Both the position numbers and the translations under genes were made by a program. Of a stretch of 64,000 nt of DNA, positions 7,163 to 15,647 are shown piece by piece. Location of the stretch: positions 163,569 through 227,568 of the forward strand of contig CAVYGR010000008.1 of the NCBI GenBank assembly GCA_963768105.1, given 5' to 3'. Position 1 is the first letter of the stretch. Every line of letters begins with the position of its first letter. The notes beneath the pieces were generated by a model. The model was not told the origin of the DNA, did no database searches, and worked only from the letters and a program-made list of their open reading frames with translations. Origin of the DNA: Candidatus Dormiibacterota bacterium. Its GTDB lineage: Bacteria; Chloroflexota; Dormibacteria; Aeolococcales; Aeolococcaceae.

Positions 7163-8566
7163 ATGCTGATCGCGCAGCCGTCCGCGCTCACGACGCTCGG
7201 ATACCTGCTGACCGCCGTCAGCTTCATGTTCGGCATCCAGCTGCTGCGATCCCCGGCGACCGCGCGTCAGGGCAATCGCGTCGCCGCCGTCGGCATGCTG
7301 CTCGTGCTCGGCATCACCGCCGCGCTCATTCACAACACCGGCAACTGGCCGTTGATCATCCCGCCGATCATCATCGGCACCGTCATCGGAGCGGTGTCGG
7401 CACGCCTGGTGCGCATGACCGCCATGCCCCAGATGGTGGCGCTGTTCAACGGCATGGGCGGCGGCTCGGCGGCGCTCATCGCCGCGCAGGATTTCCGCAC
7501 CGCGGTCGCGAGCGGGACCGCGCATCCCGACGTGACGTGGGCGATCATGGTGAGCTGCGTCATCGGATCACTGAGCTTCGCCGGCAGCCTCATCGCCTTC
7601 GCCAAGCTGCAGGAGCTGATGCCGGGGCGGCCGCTCACCTATCGACTCCAGAGCGCCGTCAACGGCGCGTTGCTCCTGGTGATCATCGGGCTCGCCGTCT
7701 ACCTGATCGTCGCCGACCAGAACCTCGCGCTCTTCGCGCTCTACGTCGCGCTGTCATTGCTCCTCGGCGTGCTCTTCGTCATCCCGATCGGTGGAGCGGA
7801 CATGCCGGTGATCATCTCCCTGCTCAACTCCTTCACCGGGCTGGCCGCGGCGACCACCGGTTTCGTGCTGAGCAACGACGTGCTCATCGTCAGCGGCGCA
7901 CTGGTGGGCGCGTCGGGAACCATCCTCACGCTGGCGATGAGCCGTGCGATGAACCGGTCGCTGTTCAACGTGCTGTTCAGCGGCTTCGGATCAAAGGTCG
8001 AGGTGGCAGGCAGCGCGGCCGGTGCCGAGGGAGGGACCATCCACCCGACGACCGTCGAGGACCTCGCGCCGCTGCTCGCCTTCGCGCAGCTGGTGATCTT
8101 CGTCCCCGGGTACGGCATGGCGGTCGCGCGCGCGCAGCACGAGGTGAAGGAGCTCGCCGACGAGCTCGAGAAGCGCGGCGTCACCATCGAATACGCCATC
8201 CACCCGGTGGCGGGCCGCATGCCGGGGCACATGAACGTGCTGCTCGCAGAGGCCAACGTCCCCTACCCGCAGCTCAAGGAGATGGACGCGGTCAACGGTG
8301 ATTTCGCGCGTACCGACGTCGCGATGGTGATCGGCGCCAACGACGTCGTGAACCCGGCGGCGCGCACGCAGTCCAACAGCCCGATCTTCGGGATGCCCAT
8401 CCTCGACGTCGACCAGGCCAAGACGGTGGTCGTGCTCAAGCGCAGCATGGCCACGGGGTTCGCCGGGGTCGACAATCCCCTCTTCTACGAGCCGAACACG
8501 CTGATGCTCTTCGGGGATGCGCGCGCCTCGGTTGCCGCGCTGATCGCCGAGGTCAAGAAGCAGTAG
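7163..8566 (+). CDS. pntB: NAD(P) transhydrogenase beta subunit
   Basis: MTAMPQMVALFNGMGG, GGADMPV, PGYGMAVA, HPVAGRMPGHMN, GANDVVNP. Confidence 0.97.
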   Translation: MLIAQPSALTTLGYLLTAVSFMFGIQLLRSPATARQGNRVAAVGMLLVLGITAALIHNTGNWPLIIPPIIIGTVIGAVSARLVRMTAMPQMVALFNGMGGGSAALIAAQDFRTAVASGTAHPDVTWAIMVSCVIGSLSFAGSLIAFAKLQELMPGRPLTYRLQSAVNGALLLVIIGLAVYLIVADQNLALFALYVALSLLLGVLFVIPIGGADMPVIISLLNSFTGLAAATTGFVLSNDVLIVSGALVGASGTILTLAMSRAMNRSLFNVLFSGFGSKVEVAGSAAGAEGGTIHPTTVEDLAPLLAFAQLVIFVPGYGMAVARAQHEVKELADELEKRGVTIEYAIHPVAGRMPGHMNVLLAEANVPYPQLKEMDAVNGDFARTDVAMVIGANDVVNPAARTQSNSPIFGMPILDVDQAKTVVVLKRSMATGFAGVDNPLFYEPNTLMLFGDARASVAALIAEVKKQ

Positions 8567-8960
8567 GCGGCGCCTCCATCGTTCCCGTGGCGGCGACAGT
8601 GCGGAGCGCCCTGAGCAGGTCTGCCGGCGCCGTGTCCTTCACCACGTAGCCGACCGCGCCGCTCTTCAACGCCTCGACCATCCGCTCGTGGCCGCCGAAC
8701 GACGTCAGCATCATCACGCGCGTGTCGGGCGTCGTCTCGACCAGACGCCGGGTCGCCTCGATCCCGCCCATGCCGGGCATGGACAGGTCCATGAGCACGA
8801 CGTCCGGGTGCACCTCGAGGGCCATCTCGAGTGCCTGCTCACCGGAGTCCGCCAGGCCGACCACCTCGATGTCGGCCTCGTGACCGAGAAACGAGGCTAG
8901 CCCCTTGCGGACGACCGGATGGTCGTCCACGATCATGACGCGTATGGCTGCGGGGGGCAT
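8553..8960 (-). CDS. Stand-alone NarL-type receiver-domain response regulator (no HTH)
   Basis: IVDDHPVVR, DVVLMDLSMP, LTS, GYVVK; ends 135 aa in, abutting pntB. Confidence 0.88.
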   Translation of the reverse strand: MPPAAIRVMIVDDHPVVRKGLASFLGHEADIEVVGLADSGEQALEMALEVHPDVVLMDLSMPGMGGIEATRRLVETTPDTRVMMLTSFGGHERMVEALKSGAVGYVVKDTAPADLLRALRTVAATGTMEAPPTAS

Positions 8961-8971
8961 CCGAGGTCACT

Positions 8972-10471
8972 CTAGCCGATGGGCAGCGTCAACACGACGA
9001 GCGTGCCGCGGCCGGGCTCGGAATCGATGGTCAGAGTACCGCCGGCCTCCTCGGCCAGGTCGACGATCGCCGACGTGCCGAGGTGATGCTCCGCCCGGCG
9101 ACGTGCGACGTCAGCCTGGCTGAAGCCCTTGCCGTCGTCCTGGATGCAGAGGATCGCCGAACCGTCCTCGGTGGTCAGTTCGACGCTGACGTTCTTCGCC
9201 TGCGAATGCGCGGCGACGTTGCGCAGCACCTCCTGGGCGACGCGGAAGATGAGCGCCGCGCGATCCTTGCGCAGGCGGAGGTTGGGCGGGAGATCGAGGG
9301 TGCTGTTCGTGCCCTTGCGTTTGATGTCGGCAAGCACCTCGATGAGCGCCGCCTGCAGCCCCTCGCGCCTGAGCGTCGGGGGAGCGAGATCGATGATCAG
9401 TGTGCGCAGGCCCTTCATCGCGTCGCGCGTTTCCGTGGCCGACCGTTCGAGCAGGTCGATCAGCTCGCTCCGCCCGTTCATCGCGTCGGGTTCCCCCTTG
9501 AGCTGAGACGCCTCCGCGGACAGCGCGAACGCGAGTCCGGCAAGGTTCTGCACGACGCCGTCGTGAAGGTCCGCGGCAATCTTCGTGCGCTCTCGCTCCG
9601 AGGCCTCGGCCTCTTTTCGGAGCAGTTCAAGGCGCTCCTTCTGGTGCCTCGTGTTCTCCACGTCGAAGGCGTGCGACCTGATCGCGAAAATGATCAGGTA
9701 GACGTGGAGCACGATGACCGGCGCCAGCAGGGCCATGAAGCCCACCACGCCGGCGTCGCCCTGCATGACGACGAAGGCGAAGGCTGCGAACCCGTACCCG
9801 ATGCTGTACGGCAGCACGGTCAGGCGAGACCGCAGGACGACGAGCGCCGGCTTGCCTTCGGCGAGATGGAACACCACCGCAGCCGATCCGGAGTTCAGCG
9901 CGAAGTGCGCGAATCCCGCCGCGAGACCCGCCGTGAGCGCAGCCGGCGGGGTGTGACCGACGAGCTGTTCGACGCCCTGGAACACCGCCCAGGCGGTCGT
10001 GTTGGCGAGGAAGATATTCGCGATGTTGAAGCTGGTGCGGAACCAGCCATTGTGGTTTCGGACGATCACGCCGAGCGGCTCCGCCACCGCGCCGACGAGT
10101 GCGCCCGTGGGTCCCAATGCCACGGCAAGACCGAGGTGGACGAATATCGTCGGGGTCCAACCGATCTTGGCCGGTCCAGTCGGTGGGAGCACGTACACCG
10201 ACATCAGAAAGATGGTCACGCCGCCCAGCGCCAGGGTGAGCGCCAGTTGGTGCACGGGCGGCGTGGGCAAACGCAGCGTGACCGCGGCGATCAACACCGC
10301 GGCACCGACCACGGTCGCGACGTACCCGACCAGCGCCGGGTTGTACGCGACCGGGCCCAGCGCGGGCGTCGACGGCAGGATGTCGAGACGACGGATCGCG
10401 CGCCCCACGGCGCCGAACTTCGGACGATGGTCTGCGTGACGCGTCTGGGGCGCGGCGATATCTTGCGCCAT
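8972..10471 (-). CDS. Multi-TM sensor histidine kinase, HisKA_3 (NarX/ComP-like)
   Basis: Long hydrophobic N-terminal region, H-box ERTKIAADLHDGVVQ, EVLRNVAAHS, DDGKGF, SEPGRGT. Confidence 0.92.
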   Translation of the reverse strand: MAQDIAAPQTRHADHRPKFGAVGRAIRRLDILPSTPALGPVAYNPALVGYVATVVGAAVLIAAVTLRLPTPPVHQLALTLALGGVTIFLMSVYVLPPTGPAKIGWTPTIFVHLGLAVALGPTGALVGAVAEPLGVIVRNHNGWFRTSFNIANIFLANTTAWAVFQGVEQLVGHTPPAALTAGLAAGFAHFALNSGSAAVVFHLAEGKPALVVLRSRLTVLPYSIGYGFAAFAFVVMQGDAGVVGFMALLAPVIVLHVYLIIFAIRSHAFDVENTRHQKERLELLRKEAEASERERTKIAADLHDGVVQNLAGLAFALSAEASQLKGEPDAMNGRSELIDLLERSATETRDAMKGLRTLIIDLAPPTLRREGLQAALIEVLADIKRKGTNSTLDLPPNLRLRKDRAALIFRVAQEVLRNVAAHSQAKNVSVELTTEDGSAILCIQDDGKGFSQADVARRRAEHHLGTSAIVDLAEEAGGTLTIDSEPGRGTLVVLTLPIG

Positions 10472-10693
10472 TAGATCGATCCTATTCTGTTCTGCATCGC
10501 CGGAGCGGCACTATCTGCGTGACAGCATTGTCAGCGCATCATGCGGCAAATCCCTGGCCAGCGCTAGCGTTTGACGCGTTAGCAACGGGCTCGCGCATCA
10601 ATCGCGTCAGCGAATCCGGCGCATCGATTCGATCAAAAAATGTGAACGCGAGATGCGCGCGATGGTCTTAAGCCTAGGAACCCTCCGCAGCGT

Positions 10694-10699
10694 TACAGT
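10694..10699 (+). promoter_or_regulatory. Putative -10 element (TACAGT) for the micro-ORF/MFS transcript
   Basis: TAnnnT hexamer 70 nt upstream of the GGAGG-led ATG in an AT-richer intergenic region. Confidence 0.35.
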
Positions 10700-10768
10700 A
10701 CGCACAACAGCAAAGGCGCCGACGGTCGGGTATCAAGCTACCGGCGGTGCACTTAGACGGAGGATTCC

Positions 10769-10801
10769 ATGGCTAATTGGGGCGACGTAGACACCTGGTA
10801 G
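10769..10801 (+). CDS. Micro-ORF, 10 aa MANWGDVDTW
   Basis: GGAGG (10759-10763) + 5 nt + ATG GCT AAT TGG GGC GAC GTA GAC ACC TGG TAG; hairpin follows at 10811-10835. Confidence 0.6.
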   Translation: MANWGDVDTW

Positions 10802-10928
10802 GTAGTCTTGCCCGGGCTTCACTGTAGAGCCCAGGTGTGACGATTCTTTGGATGATCTCGTGACGACCCGATAGCGGGTCTATCGCGTCATTGTCACGGA
10901 GAGGGATTTCGGGCTGGAGGGCAGCCGG

Positions 10929-12227
10929 GTGCGCGTTGGCGCATTCGGCCCCACGGCTGCGTTTCTGCGCGTACGCTTGCATACGCACGTCAACTGTCCT
11001 GGAGGATCGAGGCTGAGATCCTTGGCGAACGCGCCGTCGGCCCGCCGAACCCCCACCCTGACGGTCAGTCCGGCGGCGCGATTGCTGATCGCTGCGGGAA
11101 CGTCCTTCTATGGGGACTGGCTGACCACGGTTGCGCTGGTCGTTCTGCTGTTTCGACTCACGCACTCGCCGGTCGGGCCCGCCCTGTACATGCTGGCTCG
11201 TGTGGCACCCAAGGTCGTCGGTCCCTTCCCCGGCGGTGCGCTTGCCGATCGATTCGGCCCCGCTCGGATCGCCACGCTCTGCGGCATCGGCCAGGGTGTG
11301 CTCACCGCAGCGATCGTGCTCTTCGCGGAGCAGGGAGCCGTGTGGCCCATATACGGGGCGGTCGCCCTGTCGCAGTTCCTGGGCTCGGCCGCGCAGCCGT
11401 GCTACGGGGCGCTCATCCCGCGGGTGACGACGCCGGAGCGTCTCGGTCGGATCCAGGGCAGCTACTCAGCGCTGTCCAGCTCCAGCGTCATGATCTCCCC
11501 CGCCGCCGGCGCTCTCGTGCTGCCCTTTGTGAGCCCCGAGGCGCTGATCATCGTCGACGCGGCGACGTTTGTCGTGGCGGCCGGATTCGTCGCCACGCTG
11601 GCCGGCGTGGGGCGAGAGCCCGGGGCCGCGCTCTCGCTGCGCGGCATGGCCGCCGGCGTGCCCGTCGTTGTGCACGACCCGATGCTGCGCTTCCTCGTTG
11701 CCGCGTACTTTTCCAACGGCGCCGCGGTCACAACCCTGCAAGCGGTGCTGGTCGTCGCGGCAGCCCAGCGGTACGGCAACGACGCGATGGTGGGTTGGCT
11801 CTACGCATCCGTGGGTGCGGGCGCGCTGCTGGGCACACTCCCTGTGATTCGAAGAACGCCCGCGCTGGTCGGGATCAAGCCCATCGTGGCCGCCAGCGCC
11901 CTCGAACTCATGCCGCTTGCGATCTTTGTTTTCGTGACCGCGCTGCCGCTCGCCATGCTCGCCCTCTTCGCCAGCGCGCTGGGCGCCACGTTGTATCAGA
12001 CGAGGGGTGCGGTGGGGCTCCAGCAGCGCGTCCCTCGGGAACTCCTGGGCCGGACCACCGCGGTCGTGAGATTCGCGCTCAACACCGGCATGTTGCTCGG
12101 GGCGATTGCGGCGGTCTCCCTGGTGCAGCCACTCGGCTGGCAACCGACCGTGCTCATCGTTTGCGCGGCGGGGGCGACCCTGCTGTTCTTCACCGGGGTC
12201 AGCGAGGGCAGGCCGGCGTCGAGCTAG
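10929..12227 (+). CDS. MFS transporter (DHA3/macrolide-exporter-like), paralog 1
   Basis: GTSFYGDWL, GGALADRFG motif A, LQQRVPRELLGR; GGAGG at 10916-10920 before GTG. Confidence 0.9.
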   Translation: MRVGAFGPTAAFLRVRLHTHVNCPGGSRLRSLANAPSARRTPTLTVSPAARLLIAAGTSFYGDWLTTVALVVLLFRLTHSPVGPALYMLARVAPKVVGPFPGGALADRFGPARIATLCGIGQGVLTAAIVLFAEQGAVWPIYGAVALSQFLGSAAQPCYGALIPRVTTPERLGRIQGSYSALSSSSVMISPAAGALVLPFVSPEALIIVDAATFVVAAGFVATLAGVGREPGAALSLRGMAAGVPVVVHDPMLRFLVAAYFSNGAAVTTLQAVLVVAAAQRYGNDAMVGWLYASVGAGALLGTLPVIRRTPALVGIKPIVAASALELMPLAIFVFVTALPLAMLALFASALGATLYQTRGAVGLQQRVPRELLGRTTAVVRFALNTGMLLGAIAAVSLVQPLGWQPTVLIVCAAGATLLFFTGVSEGRPASS

Positions 12228-12412
12228 TTCGCCCTGGGACAGGCGCGAAGCCGCGTGCACTTTCGCAAAGAGTTATCAAGTCTCGAACAACTCGAGTAAA
12301 CCTGGCAGCAGCACGTCGAACGCCGCGCCGCCCCACCCCCCATCATCCGCGAGCCAGTCTCGGCAGACGTGTGTCGAGGCTACCTGGTGCCGGCGGAACC
12401 ATGGAGGGCTAA

Positions 12413-12442
12413 ATGGCGGAGTGCGGAACCGGCTGGGCCTGA
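12413..12442 (+). CDS. Micro-ORF, 9 aa MAECGTGWA
   Basis: GGAGG (12403-12407) + 5 nt + ATG GCG GAG TGC GGA ACC GGC TGG GCC TGA; hairpins follow. Confidence 0.55.
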   Translation: MAECGTGWA

Positions 12443-12456
12443 TCCCAGCCCGCTAG

Positions 12457-12480
12457 AGCCCCACGCAAGACGCGGGGTTT
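12457..12480 (+). terminator. Terminator-like hairpin after micro-ORF 2
   Basis: AGCCCC-acgcaagacgc-GGGGTT followed by a short T-rich tail. Confidence 0.4.
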
Positions 12481-12557
12481 GTGAATCCGTTGGTGCGACG
12501 TCGTGGGAAGAGCTGCCCGCGACGTCGCGCTCGTTTCCTCCCCGCAACGGAGTACAC

Positions 12558-13903
12558 ATGCCGATCGATACCGCGCGCTTCACCCCGCGGAGCGACCACC
12601 ACGGCCACAGGCCGATCGGTCGGCGCGCCTGCTGCTGGCCGCCGGGGTCTCGACCTACGGCGACTGGCTCACCGTCGTCGCCCTCGCCGTCCTCCTGTTC
12701 CGCCTGACCCATCAACCCGAGGCGCCGGCGCTCTACATCCTCGTCAAGGTCGCGCCCCGGGTCTTCGGCCCCACCCCGGGCGGATTTCTCGCGGACCGCT
12801 TCGGTCCCGCCCGGGTCGCCGGATGGTGCGCGCTCGCGCAGGCGGCGCTCACCGCGGCCATCGTGGTCTGCGCCGCCAGCGGAACCGTGTGGGCGATCCT
12901 CGCCGCCGTCGCCGCCGCCCAGTTCCTTGGGTCGATGGCGCAGCCGGGGTGCGCGGCGTGCATCCCTCGAGTGACGCGCCCCGACCGGCTCCTGCGGGTC
13001 AACGCCATCTACAGCGGGCTCTTCGAGTCGAGCGTCCTGGTTGCGCCCGCCGCCGGCGCGCTGCTGCTGACCTGGGTGCGGCCCGAGGTCCTGGTCGCGG
13101 CTGACGCGGGGTCGTTCGCGCTGGCCGGGCTGTTGATGCTGTCCCTGCGGGCGGTCGCGCGGCCGGCGAGCCTCTCCCCTGCGGGCCGACATGCCTCCGC
13201 GCTCCGCGTCGTGGTCCGCGACCCGGTGCTCCGCTCCCTCGCCGCCTCCTTCTTCTGCAGCGCCGCGGTGATCACCGCGCTCCAGGCGGTGTTGGTGGTC
13301 GCGGCCGCGGAGCGCTTCGGCCACGACACCGCCGTGGGATGGCTGTACGCCGCGGTCGGCGCGGGCGGTGTCGCCGGGAGCGTGGTGCTGCTGCGCTGGC
13401 GGCCGCCGCCGATCGGCGCGCTGGGCATCTCGATCGGGTTTCTCCTCGAGGTCGTCCCGCTCGGGCTCTTTGCCCTGGTCGGCGGGCTGATCCCGGCGCT
13501 GGCGCTGCTCGCCGTCAGCACCGCCGCGGCAGCGCTGTATCAGACCCGCGGCCAGACGGCCCTGCAGGAGCGCGTTCCCGCCGAGATCCTCGGCCGGGTC
13601 AACGGCCTGATCCGCTTGCTGCTGTACGCAGGCATGCTCGCCGGCGCCGGCGCCGCGGTCGCGCTCGTCGACGTCGTGGGGTGGAGCACCCTGGTGATCG
13701 CGACCGCCGTGCTCGCCGCCGCGGTCTACCTGGTCACCGCGCTCGTCTTCGACCTGGCCCGAGGCGCCCCGGCGAGGTCACCCTCACCGGGACGCCCGGG
13801 GTGCGGATCTCGGATCAGACCGCGACGGCCTCGCGAACCTCCTTCTCGATGGGCAGGCCCACCGAGTTTCCCCACTCGCTCCACGAACCGTCGTAGTTGC
13901 TGA
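12558..13903 (+). CDS. MFS transporter, paralog 2 (probable ATG 12558 with early frameshift; true end probably near 13800)
   Basis: GVSTYGDWLTVVAL, GGFLADRFG, LQERVPAEILGRV; colinear with 10929..12227; GGAG RBS at 12549. Confidence 0.88.
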
Positions 13904-14682
13904 CGCGGGGGAAGCCGAGCAGGTAGGTCAGCACGAACCAGGTGTGCGACGAGCGCTCGCCGATCCGGCAGTACGTGATCACGGATTGGTCGTCGGTCAC
14001 GCCCTGCGCCGCGTAGAGATCGCGAAGCGCGTCGGCGGGCTTGAAGGTGTCGTCGTCCTGGATCGCCTGCGCCCACGGAATGTTGGCCGCGCCGGGAATG
14101 TGGCCGCTGCGCTGCGCGCCCTCGTTGGGGTACTCGGGCGGCGCGGAGATCTCGCCCTTGAACTCTGCGGGCGAGCGCACGTCGACGAGCGCCCGGCCCG
14201 CGGCGCCGAGGGCCTTCTCGACGTCGCCGCGGAAGCTGCGGATCGAGGTGTCGGCGTCAGACGCGGTGTAGGTGCTCGGTGTGAAGGACGGCGCCCCTCG
14301 GTGACCTCGCGTCCCTCGTCGATCCACTTGCGCCGGCCGCCGTTGAGCAGACGGATGTCGGGGTGCCCGTAGATCCGGAACGTCCAGAACGCGAACGCCG
14401 CGAACCAGTTGCGGAAGTCGCCATAGAGCACGAGGGTCGTGTCCCTGGTCGCGCCGACCCGCGAGAGGAGCTGCTCGAACTGCTCCTTCGACAGGATGTC
14501 GCGACGCACCGGGTCGTTGATGTCGCGCTTCCAGTCGACCAGCTCCGCGCCGGGGATGTGCCCCAGCTCGTACGCGGCCGACGGGTCGTAGTCGACTCGA
14601 GGATCCGGACCTGCGGGTCGGTGAGGTGCTCGGCCAGCCAGTCGGTGGTGACCAGGACCTCTGGATGTGCGTATTCGGTCAT
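13815..14682 (-). CDS. Two-domain rhodanese thiosulfate sulfurtransferase (CysA-like; frameshifts ~14597 and ~14295)
   Basis: [28 protein letters not shown], active site [19 protein letters not shown]. Confidence 0.92.
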
Positions 14683-14781
14683 GACAAGAGCTCCTGTTGT
14701 GTGGTGCTATTAGTGCGGCGGGGGCCGCGCGGTTGTGCAATCACGGACGACGGCGCGGCGACGATCGCGCGCCGGGGACGG

Positions 14782-14868
14782 TCAGGCCGAGGTCGTACAG
14801 GTCGCCCTGCCGGACCGCAACCGTCCCCAGTCGAGCCAGCGCCGGCGGGTCAACAGCGTCCCATCCAT
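14782..14868 (-). CDS. Putative Cys-containing leader peptide MDGTLLTRRRWLDWGRLRSGRATCTTSA
   Basis: 28-codon ORF 10 nt downstream of a -10 box, upstream of a sulfurtransferase; resembles actinobacterial LxxRRxxDxxRxxSxxC leader peptides. Confidence 0.6.
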   Translation of the reverse strand: MDGTLLTRRRWLDWGRLRSGRATCTTSA

Positions 14869-14877
14869 ATGGGATCG

Positions 14878-14911
14878 ATGGTAGGTAATCCCGACCTCGG
14901 TAGTCAAGTTT
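14878..14911 (-). promoter_or_regulatory. Sigma70-type promoter (TTGACT-N18-TACCAT) overlapped by an Rrf2/IscR-type operator
   Basis: Minus strand AAACTTGACTACCGAGGTCGGGATT (14887-14911), an imperfect 25-bp palindrome with GAC-N7-GTC core. Confidence 0.65.
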
Positions 14912-14939
14912 CTGCGAAGCCCGGTAACGGGTCGGCGCG

Positions 14940-15647
14940 CTACCCGGCGGCCGAGATGCTGAGCCTCCGAGCCAGCAGGTAGGCGCGCGTGGTCTGCACC
15001 TCGACATCCGGGTACGGAACGCGCACGAGACGCGCCTCGACGCCGAAGCCCGACGCGGTGACCTCCGCCTCCAGGCGTGCGGCGTCGAAGAAGCGAAAGT
15101 CCATGTCCACGCTCACGCCGAGCATGTCGTCGGCATGGACCGTCGCGTCGCCGTGCTCGCCGAGATGCACGGCGACCAGGAGCAATCCGCCGGCAACCAG
15201 GACCCGATGGAACTCCCCGAGCGCCGCGCGGACGTCGGCGTCTGCGGTGAGGTGGATGATCGAGTAGAAGGCGACGATCCCGTTGAACCGGCCGTCGGGT
15301 CCGCCGAGGTCCGTCATCGTGCCGACCTCGAAGGTCATGTCCGGGTGCAGGGCCCTGCCGCGGTCCACCATCGCCGGCGACAGGTCGATGCCGGTGACCG
15401 CGAGGCCCAGCTGCGCCAGGAACGCGCCGACGTGGCCTGGACCCGAGCCGATATCGGCCACCGCGGCGTGCGTCCCGCTCTCCGCCTGCAGCTGCTCGGC
15501 GAACGCGGTCAGCAGCGCGCAGTCGAGCGGTTTGTGCGGCAACTCGTCGTGCACGCGCTCGACGTAGGCGTCGGCGACGGCGTCATAGCTGGCGCGTACG
15601 CGCTCCAGATCCTGCGGCGCGCGGTCGCCACCACTCGGTTCGTTCAT
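14940..15647 (-). CDS. Class I SAM-dependent methyltransferase
   Basis: VRASYDAVA, VADIGSGPG, GIDLSPAMV, FYSIIH. Confidence 0.88.
   Translation of the reverse strand: MNEPSGGDRAPQDLERVRASYDAVADAYVERVHDELPHKPLDCALLTAFAEQLQAESGTHAAVADIGSGPGHVGAFLAQLGLAVTGIDLSPAMVDRGRALHPDMTFEVGTMTDLGGPDGRFNGIVAFYSIIHLTADADVRAALGEFHRVLVAGGLLLVAVHLGEHGDATVHADDMLGVSVDMDFRFFDAARLEAEVTASGFGVEARLVRVPYPDVEVQTTRAYLLARRLSISAAG

Follow-up and report, generated by a model that had tools for sequence, protein, structure and literature searches.

Each of two paralogous MFS genes in the stretch of DNA analysed here (64,000 nucleotides, hereafter the window) is preceded by a micro-ORF that has Trp as its last or next-to-last codon. 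These micro-ORFs exist, are conserved, and are tightly paired with the MFS genes within structured leaders. Our current working hypothesis, to which we give about an even chance, is that they are cis-acting leader ORFs in which a ribosome at the terminal Trp codon sets the expression of the MFS gene. An earlier note on this DNA had offered cis-acting leader peptides as the alternative to its main proposal of a secreted peptide, and that alternative emerged as the better-supported reading of the two.

Trp micro-ORFs paired with MFS genes

The micro-ORFs and the genes that follow them are these:

10769 to 10801, plus strand: micro-ORF1, from ATG to TAG, 10 codons plus TAG (MANWGDVDTW), with Trp codons at 10778-10780 and 10796-10798
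11013 to 12227, plus strand: MFS1, DHA3-like, with a probable CTG start at 11013 and GGAGGA 6 nt upstream (Pfam MFS_1, 8.1e-20)
12413 to 12442, plus strand: micro-ORF2, from ATG to TGA, 9 codons plus TGA (MAECGTGWA), with its Trp codon at 12434-12436
12503 to 13903, plus strand: body of MFS2 (Pfam MFS_1), whose 3' end overlaps a convergent rhodanese gene

The sequence confirmed the geometry described in the earlier note, a Trp micro-ORF with GGAGG-N5-ATG before each of the two MFS genes: the SD of micro-ORF1, GGAGG, occupies 10759-10763 with a spacer of 5 nt to the ATG, and a GGAGG SD likewise stands 5 nt ahead of the ATG of micro-ORF2. The MFS genes are paralogous, as had been claimed, MFS1 and MFS2 being ~52% identical. 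The start of MFS1 is likely CTG 11013 and not an ATG, GTG or TTG; this CTG is the only in-frame candidate in several relatives, and the TTG at 11022 is peculiar to the window and lacks conservation. The conserved start of MFS2, ATG 12558, is in the window one base out of frame relative to aligned relatives.

The relatives that we compared are Candidatus Dormibacterota by their record titles, are all MAGs and are not independent of one another. Micro-ORF1 was found at the same place, on the same strand as the MFS gene, in 19/19 same-genus loci, and micro-ORF2 in 20/22. A Trp micro-ORF lay upstream of the MFS gene in all 54 of the 54 loci with >450 nt of upstream sequence and, in further genera, in 17 of 20 loci. 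At 20 loci from other genera, which are likewise not independent, 17/27 SD-led ORFs of 5-22 codons upstream of the MFS gene ended in W or W-x, compared with 11/148 elsewhere in the same loci. The pattern of micro-ORF1 occurs only once in the 2.68-Mb genome (six-frame scan). A chance origin of the micro-ORFs is excluded by this genome-wide uniqueness (for micro-ORF1), by the same-place recurrence in the genus and by the excess of terminal Trp in other genera. In the alignment of relatives, the start codons swap between ATG and GTG, the stop codons between TAG, TAA and TGA, and Ala2 is encoded by all four GCN codons; since starts and stops interchange and the Ala2 codons are synonymous, the frames behave as translated ORFs.

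Trp as the last or next-to-last codon is the sole feature kept across all genera. The micro-ORFs are 6-15 codons long and contain 1-3 Trp codons each, never in tandem; a second Trp stands at codon 4 in many of them, some contain three, and the short (second) type has one Trp only. Conservation of the other residues is limited to groups of genera, the N terminus reading M-A-[NTS]-W-G-D in the genus and M-[AG]-T-W-D-[TN]-Q-C in a distant group. A check suggested in the earlier note, for conserved SD-led short Trp ORFs upstream of MFS homologs, was thus positive: ORFs of <16 codons with Trp at or next to the C terminus precede the MFS gene at nearly all orthologous loci. The companion check for co-occurrence with the kinase held in part, the first cassette being linked to this type of kinase across genera whereas short-type cassettes have none nearby. 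Second-type cassettes (micro-ORF plus MFS) were found with no kinase, receiver or HD_5 gene within 3.3 kb at loci L100, L105, L110, L114 and L116, and the neighbours of such kinase-free short cassettes, in other genera, are unrelated. Because the short cassette occurs without kinase or receiver amid unrelated neighbours, the micro-ORF travels with the MFS gene and not with the kinase.

These patterns bear on the possibility that the micro-ORF products are a secreted signal, namely leaderless, unmodified peptides of 6-15 residues with a C-terminal Trp that would be exported by the MFS protein and sensed outside by the polytopic domain of the kinase, which we regard as unlikely. Conservation of the peptide sequence beyond Trp inside genus groups speaks for such a signal, but between genera nothing is retained beyond the Trp and its place at the end, short-type cassettes have no sensor nearby, and in this genus a single sensor would have to serve two peptide/MFS pairs. 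Few cases are known in which an MFS protein exports plain ribosomal peptides. The earlier note had also stated that no modifying enzyme or ABC exporter is adjacent, and this was upheld: no processing, modifying or ABC export gene was present among the neighbours scanned in the conserved module, a further point against secretion.

RNA structure and transcription of the leaders

The elements of the two leaders are as follows:

10664 to 10699, plus strand: candidate promoter region of leader 1, with the partly palindromic GGTCTTAAGCC at 10664-10674 and a -10-like TACAGT at 10694-10699
10710 to 11012, plus strand: leader 1 RNA, with H0, SD, micro-ORF1, H1, H2 and H3 in this order
about 10715 to 10751, plus strand: hairpin H0 at the 5' end of leader 1 (RNAalifold)
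about 10808 to 10838, plus strand: hairpin H1, with the conserved loop CACUGUAG (RNAalifold)
about 10845 to 10903, plus strand: long hairpin H2 of leader 1
about 10919 to 10953, plus strand: GC-rich hairpin H3 of leader 1
12330 to 12557, plus strand: leader 2 RNA, with SD, micro-ORF2, P1, T1, a U-rich tail, T2 and a UUUC(C) stretch
12431 to 12451, plus strand: hairpin P1, which contains the Trp and stop codons of micro-ORF2 (alignments)
12459 to 12477, plus strand: terminator-like T1, with its U-rich tail at 12478-12486
about 12492 to 12533, plus strand: 16-bp hairpin T2 of leader 2
12549 to 12552, plus strand: GGAG, the SD of MFS2, which could pair with the UUUC(C) stretch of leader 2

A hairpin 3' of both micro-ORFs, as the earlier note had reported, is provided by H1 for micro-ORF1 and by P1 and T1 for micro-ORF2. 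The promoter of leader 1 may lie at 10664-10699, a region conserved in a 19-locus alignment, and the leader 1 RNA contig described below begins at 10710; a consensus promoter scan gave no call at leader 1. RNAalifold revealed compensatory changes in H0 and H1 (22 same-genus sequences) and covariation in T1 and T2 (34 distinct sequences). Covarying hairpins are also found in the leaders of the distant group, and part of the peptide conservation may reflect RNA pairing. As a single sequence, leader 1 folds with z = -2.58, none of 100 shuffles being equally stable, and the fold of leader 2 is not significant against shuffles (z = -1.31). Nucleotide identity across the genus reaches 80% in H2, 76% in H3 and 86% in codons 1-6 of the micro-ORF, compared with 65% for the MFS1 coding sequence and 64% for that of the kinase. 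The leaders are under selection as RNA, and in parts they show more conservation than the coding sequence of the MFS gene. No U-tract terminator was found in leader 1 by the RNAalifold fold or a terminator scan, T1 was not called in the window by a simple terminator scan, and the spacing between the last Trp codon and H1 varies by about 6-17 nt among the aligned genomes.

The 100-200 nt between micro-ORF and MFS gene are conserved as structured RNA, far above the needs of a terminator, which argues against a secreted signal. Together with the kinase-free cassettes and the retention of Trp alone, these structured leaders disfavour the proposal of the earlier note that the peptides are exported whole by their MFS and sensed by the kinase.

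The existence of a short leader 1 RNA is weakly indicated by a single assembled contig of 205 nt from one soil metatranscriptome run (X2), which covers 10710-10905 with no differences at a word depth of 99.9, contigs being unable to rank depth or to fix RNA ends. The remaining X2 contigs within the first 3.6 kb have word depths of 2.6-7.4, and none falls on the MFS1 body. Such a short RNA would also suit a stand-alone peptide gene. A short, abundant micro-ORF transcript is indeed a point in favour of a secreted product, with microcin C as precedent, where a hairpin lies between the 7-codon gene and the downstream genes (PMC4231749). The microcin C system, to which the cassettes can be likened, has a micro-ORF (the 7-codon mccA) whose product is a real peptide, ribosome-dependent termination just 3' of it and a downstream MFS exporter, MccC (PMC4231749); it differs from them in that the peptides here end in Trp, not Asn. 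No MccB-type (ThiF-like) adenylating enzyme and no immunity genes were present among the genes scanned around the cassettes.

An Rfam cmscan of 8000-15000 (E up to 1) returned no match to the leaders, Trp_leader included. Its sole match, to lin-4 on the opposite strand at 13748-13813, was set aside as chance. In the Dormibacterota-related literature, we found nothing on these micro-ORFs or leaders.

Proposed control by a ribosome at the terminal Trp codon

We propose that each micro-ORF would be translated as the 5' part of its MFS gene's mRNA, within the folded leader, and that the sensor would be the ribosome at the end of the micro-ORF, where the Trp codon is last or next to last. A hairpin starts at the terminal Trp codon or at most about 15 nt past it. 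A ribosome lingering at this codon would keep the next hairpin open, and a ribosome that terminates and leaves would allow it to form. By default, the transcript would end, or stay closed, in the leader and yield the short abundant leader RNA; in the alternative state, the MFS gene would be transcribed and translated. Since Trp codons are the sole feature common to all genera and number 1-3 per 6-15 codons, the signal would most likely be how much charged tRNA-Trp, or free Trp, is available, and the MFS proteins would transport a Trp-related substrate. That ribosomes stall at UGG, what the signal is, which way regulation runs and what the MFS proteins carry are all parts of the model that we infer. 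A link to Trp that is independent of the peptide comes from the distant group, where TrpRS is encoded by a single gene (one match each, 5/5 genomes), located 2-3 kb downstream of the MFS gene and in the same orientation. In the window's own genome, trpS is unlinked to the cassettes and no leader was found for trpE.

One known leader for comparison is TnaC, the free-Trp-sensing leader of the tryptophanase operon. This peptide has 24 residues with an essential Trp 12 from the end, needs a C-terminal Pro and blocks Rho, and the ribosome held at the end of its ORF governs the genes that follow, among them one for a Trp transporter. The micro-ORFs would share with TnaC a Trp leader peptide and a ribosome acting at the ORF end, but they have no sequence similarity to it and go down to 6-7 codons. 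In Actinobacteria, classical attenuators are found upstream of trp operons and trpS (PMC1262725), and trpL and the Streptomyces trpS attenuators have the same SD-led short 5' ORF, enriched in Trp and followed by conserved hairpins. A nearby trpS extends this likeness in the distant group only. The cassettes depart from the trpL type in several respects: their Trp codons are non-tandem with one at the ORF end, the target is an MFS gene, Rfam gives no match, some members of the family have a membrane sensor as partner, and no terminator/antiterminator pair could be resolved. Leader-peptide attenuation also operates in the DHA3-type pump operon mef(E)/mel and in bmrCD, where a micro-ORF and a structured leader likewise precede the pump and premature termination is the default (PMC4335068 and PMC4191407).

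Several observations count against cis control. No mutually exclusive terminator/antiterminator pair was definable, and no alternative pairing had covariation support; it is not obvious that T1 would be blocked by a ribosome standing on the Trp codon or the stop of micro-ORF2; the group-wise conservation of residues beyond Trp is not required of a pure codon sensor; and the regulated gene encodes a DHA3-like MFS protein, not a Trp pathway enzyme. The variable spacing between Trp and H1, the lack of a U-tract in leader 1 and the unremarkable fold of leader 2 weigh in the same direction, as do the separated Trp codons (a single one in the short type) and, in the window's own genome, the unlinked trpS and the leaderless trpE.

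A cis-acting leader peptide might instead sense a small molecule, either a ribosome-targeting antibiotic or the pump substrate, with nascent-peptide arrest inducing the efflux pump as in ermC, cat86/cmlA and mef(E)/mel. The best model for the MFS proteins is indeed TIGR00900 (NCBIfam, DHA3 drug:H+ antiporter), with a weak match to Mef(A), but the scores of 120.3 and 123.7 bits for the former (cut-off 319.6) and of 20.7 bits for the latter (cut-off 675) are far too low, and the proteins are DHA3-like only, below the DHA3 family cut-off. Drug sensing would also suit short ORFs with group-specific conserved N-terminal residues and organisms from soil and peat (record titles), and leader-peptide control of this kind is established for mef(E)/mel and bmrCD (PMC4335068 and PMC4191407). 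It would, however, leave unexplained why a terminal Trp is the single universal feature of otherwise unrelated micro-ORFs, and we see only a small chance that it is right. We recognised no known stalling motif in the micro-ORFs, and a terminal Trp is not known as a drug-stalling motif. In contrast to mef(E)/mel, bmrCD, ermC and cat86/cmlA, the cassettes are chromosomal, vertically inherited in one lineage, and duplicated.

Cis control of the MFS gene might also be combined with an action in trans of the released peptide, of the short leader RNA, or of both. This would accommodate the evidence for cis control, the conservation of peptide residues within genus groups and the abundance of the short leader RNA, and the Sinorhizobium Trp attenuator products peTrpL and rnTrpL provide a dual-function precedent (PMC7968998 and bioRxiv 10.1101/606483). 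Either model alone would be more parsimonious, and we consider the combination highly improbable.

If control by a ribosome at the terminal Trp codon is true, the cassettes would represent leader-ORF switches of a new family, from a lineage for which the records found contain no cultured member (61/61 titled MAG). The design would be very compact, sensing Trp at the end of a 6-7-codon ORF, with a transporter as target instead of a biosynthetic operon. It would give a testable handle on the cargo of the MFS proteins (Trp itself, a compound derived from it, or one that inhibits Trp charging) and show how abundant bacteria of soil and peat (record titles) tune a transporter.

A membrane sensor beside the first cassette

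Two genes on the opposite strand adjoin the first cassette:

8553 to 8960, minus strand: response regulator of 135 aa, receiver only (Pfam Response_reg, 1.1e-30), with no other domain and no HTH
8972 to 10471, minus strand: histidine kinase of 499 aa, with a polytopic input domain (about residues 40-270), HisKA_3 and HATPase_c

The arrangement given in the earlier note, a first unit opposite a polytopic HisKA_3 kinase and a NarL-type receiver, was therefore correct, with the addition that the receiver has no output domain: its best NCBIfam match is to positions 7-128 of the 216 of NarL. The 3' end of the receiver gene overlaps that of pntB by 14 nt. The receiver is 85-91% identical within the genus, and a 135-aa receiver ORF is likewise present in the distant loci L083 and L095. 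The input domain of the kinase has about 6-7 hydrophobic segments in residues 40-265; compared with 11 same-genus alignment rows, the N-terminal part of the protein is 40-57% identical and the C-terminal part 72-86%. The first-type cassette adjoins the kinase in 51/52 loci and the receiver in 48/49, and in further genera the membrane domain lies by this cassette in 12/20 loci, of which 8 have the kinase and the receiver and 4 an HD_5 fusion. The pntB and rhodanese neighbours of the first cassette, unlike the kinase, are not kept across genera. Four genera have this membrane domain joined to HD_5 instead of a kinase (4/4 proteins scanned, from four loci with a kinase-like match on the same strand). 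No DNA-binding domain was detected in the receiver, the kinase or the HD_5 version, in the window and in the distant loci scanned, and for this reason the membrane sensor cannot be the transcription factor of the MFS gene. We suggest that the sensor, as kinase plus receiver or as HD_5 protein, would be coupled in function to the first MFS cassette. Cis control by the micro-ORFs leaves this conserved pairing unexplained.

The pairing speaks for a secreted signal: the sensor stays with the first-type cassette (counts given above) where other neighbours do not, its membrane part diverges faster than the catalytic part, and the sensor looks like a reader of the product or cargo of the cassette because neither output has a DNA-binding domain. 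Such a system would consist of Trp-ending peptides from tiny genes, dedicated MFS proteins and an undescribed polytopic sensor with a kinase-receiver or HD_5 (HD-GYP-like) output, the leader RNA setting the peptide-to-pump ratio as in microcin C; it would be peptide signalling unlike the known Gram-positive systems, and we hold it to be a doubtful prospect. The kinase-sensing step of the earlier note is itself disfavoured by the RNA contig that covers leader 1 only, by the receiver without a DNA-binding domain and by the replacement of the kinase with HD_5 in four genera.

In ComQXPA, the kinase ComP is also of the HisKA_3 type. ComQXPA and Agr resemble the first cassette in having a small Trp peptide near a polytopic kinase; they differ from it in that the cassette has no precursor leader, no ComQ/AgrB-type enzyme and a receiver without a DNA-binding domain, in that the peptide gene stands outside the kinase operon and also occurs kinase-free, and in that an HD_5 protein replaces the kinase in some genera. 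UhpC is an MFS co-sensor beside the polytopic HisKA_3 kinase UhpB, which has MASE1 in its membrane part; the regulator of that system, UhpA, is of the NarL type and binds DNA. An MFS gene adjoining a polytopic HisKA_3 kinase is common to both systems, whereas the regulator here is receiver only and the membrane part has no Pfam family.

A further outcome of the comparison is a polytopic input domain, so far uncharacterised, that can carry either a kinase or an HD_5 output. Because it keeps so faithfully to a transporter cassette, it is a candidate for a sensor of a ligand or one linked to the transporter. The membrane domain of the kinase matched no Pfam family by hmmscan (E up to 10), MASE9 (PF20972) included. 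A possible likeness to MASE9 comes from language-model features only, the nearest ESM Atlas clusters containing 18-32% MASE9 members (score 0.93, 208 shared features).

Tryptophan-ending micro-ORFs ahead of the transporter genes

Two paralogous genes of DHA3-like transporters, MFS1 and MFS2, are each preceded by a tiny Trp-bearing ORF (micro-ORF1 and micro-ORF2), and the window sequence agrees with the earlier note's description of the pair, with GGAGG and 5 nt before both ORFs and hairpins after both. The region lies in a 2.68-Mb MAG with a completeness of 69.7%, and every genome compared with it is also a MAG.

Features of the region (window positions)
7163-8566, + strand: pntB, leftmost gene of the region
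8553-8960, - strand: receiver-only response regulator, 135 aa
8972-10471, - strand: kinase, 499 aa, HisKA_3 + HATPase_c
between kinase and MFS1: divergent intergenic region, 540 nt
10769-10801, + strand: micro-ORF1, MANWGDVDTW, 5 nt after GGAGG
11013-12227, + strand: MFS1, with CTG 11013 as the probable start
between MFS1 and MFS2: spacer, 330 nt
12413-12442, + strand: micro-ORF2, MAECGTGWA, 5 nt after GGAGG
12503-13903, + strand: MFS2 body frame; conserved ATG at 12558
13815-14682, - strand: rhodanese-domain gene, convergent with MFS2

The tandem MFS pair is recurrent within the genus (41 related genomes). Micro-ORF1 was found at 19/19 same-genus loci that include the region upstream of MFS1 (22 loci in total; the truncated L019, L021 and L022 are left out), in the form M-A-[NTS]-W-G-D-x-[DEA]-[NST]-W with one optional extra residue. 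Micro-ORF2, of the form M-[AT]-x-G-x-x-W-[GAS], is present at 20 of the 22 loci, the two others being L017, whose locus lacks a second MFS, and L022, which is cut. A scan with one genome per species yielded 61 loci, and each of the 54 in which over 450 nt of upstream sequence is available carries a first-type micro-ORF. The loci of the distant group, whose MFS is 36-42% identical, have a micro-ORF of 14-15 codons (M-[AG]-[TS]-W-[DN]-[TNS]-Q-C-x4-5-W-x), and 17 of 20 additional loci from other genera have W-ending micro-ORFs of 6 to 14 codons that are otherwise unrelated in sequence to the genus and distant-group forms. Conserved Trp micro-ORFs upstream of MFS homologs, for which the earlier note proposed to test, are thus borne out in both sets. 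The micro-ORF frame is preserved across a 3-nt insertion, all four codons are used for Ala2, and both the start (ATG/GTG) and the stop (TAG/TAA/TGA) vary; a six-frame scan of the whole genome returned a single occurrence of the micro-ORF1 pattern.

At the 20 additional loci, Trp is the last or next-to-last residue in 17 of the 27 SD-led ORFs of 5-22 codons within 480 nt upstream of MFS, versus 11 of 148 comparable ORFs elsewhere in the same loci (binomial p 2.6e-13, over relatives that are not independent), so that a terminal Trp codon is the one universal feature across genera; a second Trp at codon 4 is frequent and a third occasional. Three loci of MFS paralogues (L118 (G487:C7), L102 and L115) have no W-ending micro-ORF, and at one of them a Mutator-family transposase lies directly upstream, which may have displaced the leader of that paralogue. 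By the taxonomy used, MFS orthologues are restricted to the family of the window (56 of 71 sampled genomes, the 56 including three unpublished ones, and 14 of 22 genera); no orthologue was found in the 16 order-mates searched, where the best matches are ~30% identical. A far-type DNA pattern gave two matches in 401 genomes of the "phylum" (the tool's label), both in the same family, and was too strict for prevalence, so a family-level protein search was used instead.

MFS1 probably starts at CTG 11013, 6 nt downstream of GGAGGA: in several relatives a CTG is the sole in-frame ATG, GTG, TTG or CTG from the preceding stop codon to the conserved N-terminus, and TTG 11022 of the window is TCG in most relatives. 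This CTG sits within a small conserved hairpin (GCUGA/UCGGC). For MFS2, the conserved start is ATG 12558, with the SD GGAG at 12549-12552, and in 20 aligned relatives the protein starts with M-[PTAL]-I-[DN]-x-[AG]-R-F. We infer these start codons from sequence; none could be fixed for the distant-group MFS genes. In the window alone, ATG 12558 and the MFS2 body differ in frame by one base (region 12558-12620), owing to an assembly indel or else to a frameshift of recent date. Apparent 1-nt indels affect both MFS2 and the rhodanese-domain gene, which is broken into two or more frames (ORFs 13815-14327 and 14257-14682, - strand), and these two disruptions, together with the completeness of the MAG, suggest indel errors in the assembly.

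Structure and transcripts of the leaders

The sequence between the promoter and the MFS start (leader 1 for MFS1, leader 2 for MFS2) is strongly conserved in alignments. Since RNAalifold on the genus and intermediate genera together gave a weak consensus (-7.4 kcal/mol), folds were made group by group, and the hairpin-to-Trp-codon geometry was taken from these consensus folds and the alignments. In leader 1, a 5' hairpin ahead of the SD shows compensatory changes, as does, many times over and with an invariant loop, the 12-bp hairpin H1 located 3' of the micro-ORF1 stop; the leader further holds a long hairpin, H2, and a GC-rich one, H3. In leader 2, one hairpin (P1) encloses the Trp and stop codons, T1 is a terminator-like stem with a U-rich tail, T2 is a 16-bp hairpin, and another stretch has the potential to pair with the MFS2 SD. 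Homologous hairpins occur in the distant group, among them a GUGACG...CGUCAC element. Nucleotide identity within the genus is 80% for H2, 76% for H3 and 86% for codons 1-6 of micro-ORF1 (taken from 10770 instead of 10769, with negligible effect); the coding sequences of MFS1, the kinase and pntB stand at 65%, 64% and 83%. The leader 1 fold is more stable than all 100 shuffles (z = -2.58), and that of leader 2 is not better than shuffles (z = -1.31). Taken together, these data argue that the leaders are functional RNA.

An Rfam search of the region matched no family, and a consensus promoter/terminator scan called no promoter and did not call T1 in the window. A T-box, considered for the conserved UUGG of H2, was rejected because UGG is not retained in intermediate genera and no Rfam T-box matched. 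Two possible long-range helices, one in the distant group (micro-ORF codons 1-7 with a G-rich motif close to where MFS begins) and one in leader 2 (sequence 5' of the micro-ORF2 SD with the first MFS2 codons), are compatible with the sequences, yet show almost no compensatory changes and are not counted as evidence. L043, L054 and L059 have an insertion of ~40 nt (alignment columns 317-356) that repeats the 3' half of H3 (GCGCAUUCGGCUCC) and is a local duplication inside the leader. The partly palindromic GGTCTTAAGCC at 10664-10674, ~20 nt 5' of a -10-like TACAGT, hardly varies across the genus and is a possible operator for some regulator. An upstream motif, GCAAAGAGTTGT..., is common to leader 2 and the distant-group leaders and differs from that of leader 1.

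Part of the stretch is present in five sequencing runs, four of which were aligned. Because all of these data are assembled contigs, ends and depths such as the following are not measurements: in the metatranscriptome run X2, a 205-nt contig identical to the window over 10710-10905, from ~11 nt past the conserved TACAGT across micro-ORF1, H1 and H2, has a word depth of 99.9, the remaining X2 contigs listed on 10300-13900 have depths of 2.6-7.4, and none of them lies on the MFS1 body. This hints weakly at a leader RNA that is short and abundant; it is compatible with a switched-off attenuator but also with a stand-alone peptide transcript. Another X2 contig, 295 nt long and from a relative (17 differences), spans micro-ORF2, T1 and T2 and runs into MFS2. 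The 205-nt contig implies one G more than the window shows in the G run at 10903-10905. The contigs of runs X1, X3 and X5 have low depth; many come from relatives, and they may be DNA. Parts that they leave uncovered were not used.

A membrane sensor beside the cassette

Of the loci with sufficient sequence, 51 of 52 have the divergent kinase and 48 of 49 the receiver; outside the genus, the pntB and rhodanese neighbours are not retained. Within the window, pntB and the receiver gene converge with a 14-nt overlap (8553-8566), a tight junction also seen in the relatives examined. The 135-aa receiver ORF also occurs in distant loci, so its receiver-only form is not a truncation. The N-terminal half of the kinase has ~6-7 hydrophobic segments and matched no Pfam family at E up to 10; by language-model features it lies nearest MASE9 clusters (score 0.93), for which hmmscan gave no confirmation. 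Among the 20 further loci, 8 have kinase and receiver, and at 4, from four genera, a Pfam HD_5/HD domain, of the HD-GYP phosphodiesterase family, replaces the kinase on the same membrane domain (35% identity across kinase residues 41-326; E 6e-42). The fusion gene lies beside the micro-ORF-MFS cassette, just upstream on the same strand.

HD_5/HD fusions (locus positions)
L103, 1141-2664
L106, 1190-2755
L107, 1180-2724
L108, 2003-3508, - strand

The remaining 8 loci have neither arrangement within 3.3 kb, and 5 of them still carry a short W-ending micro-ORF, amid mutually unrelated neighbours (a PAS-GAF-GGDEF-EAL protein, a BTAD/NB-ARC regulator, LeuRS and a deacetylase). Thus the linkage of micro-ORF and kinase proposed earlier is nearly constant at first-type loci, but it does not extend to these five loci, and the minimal conserved unit is micro-ORF plus MFS. 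The polytopic input domain, a modular and undescribed sensor domain, forms a looser second layer, in which one cassette per genome is paired with it and the outputs are never DNA-binding.

The earlier note proposed that the micropeptides are secreted signals, exported by the MFS and sensed by the kinase. A sensor that lacks a DNA-binding output and faithfully adjoins a peptide-plus-pump cassette does look like a reader of the cassette's product, and this is a real argument for the proposal. However, cassettes without a sensor exist, no processing genes lie in the conserved module and conserved structured RNA separates the micro-ORF from the pump, so that we regard secretion as unlikely. A complex prediction for kinase residues 1-285 with MFS1 scored 0.00 and is uninformative either way.

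Proposed control of the transporters by the leader ORFs

The micro-ORFs fit best as cis-acting leader ORFs, the alternative that the earlier note had placed second, because micro-ORF and MFS are inseparable, the leader is conserved, folded and equipped with terminator-like elements, a hairpin begins at or just past the ORF end, and Trp codons alone are universal. The dwell time of the ribosome at the terminal Trp codon would decide what becomes of the next hairpin and, in turn, MFS expression. The simplest determinant of this time would be charged tRNA-Trp, or else free Trp, as for TnaC. Other residues are conserved group by group, a sign that pairing of the RNA or the nascent peptide matters too. 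With these group-specific residues, and since no alternative-structure pair could be defined in the leaders and the H1 spacing is not constant, two further readings retain some weight: ligand- or drug-dependent ribosome arrest on the micro-ORF, which we consider improbable, and a dual role in cis and in trans, which seems more improbable still.

Leader ORFs that control transporters, and attenuators built on Trp codons, are established in published work (PMC4335068, PMC4191407, PMC7968998, PMC4231749, PMC1262725). In the library searched, our literature search returned such precedents only and no paper combining "Dormibacterota" and "leader peptide". On the cis-acting reading, the leader ORFs described here would make up a new family, in which the ORF closes with the sensing codon, stands before duplicated MFS genes and is coupled to an undescribed sensor domain.

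A leader at the genome's own trpE, looked for as a comparison, was not found; trpE directly follows an aminotransferase gene. The distant group, and no other, has its sole TrpRS gene 2-3 kb downstream of MFS on the same strand, which is a second link to Trp. An auxiliary (resistance) TrpRS was considered and rejected, the neighbouring TrpRS being the only match in 5/5 genomes. In the genome of the window, trpS is on a different contig. The order after MFS, on the same strand, in L081, L083-L090 and L092-L098 of the distant group is unknown ORF, alpha/beta hydrolase and TrpRS (for example, L083:6481-7515).
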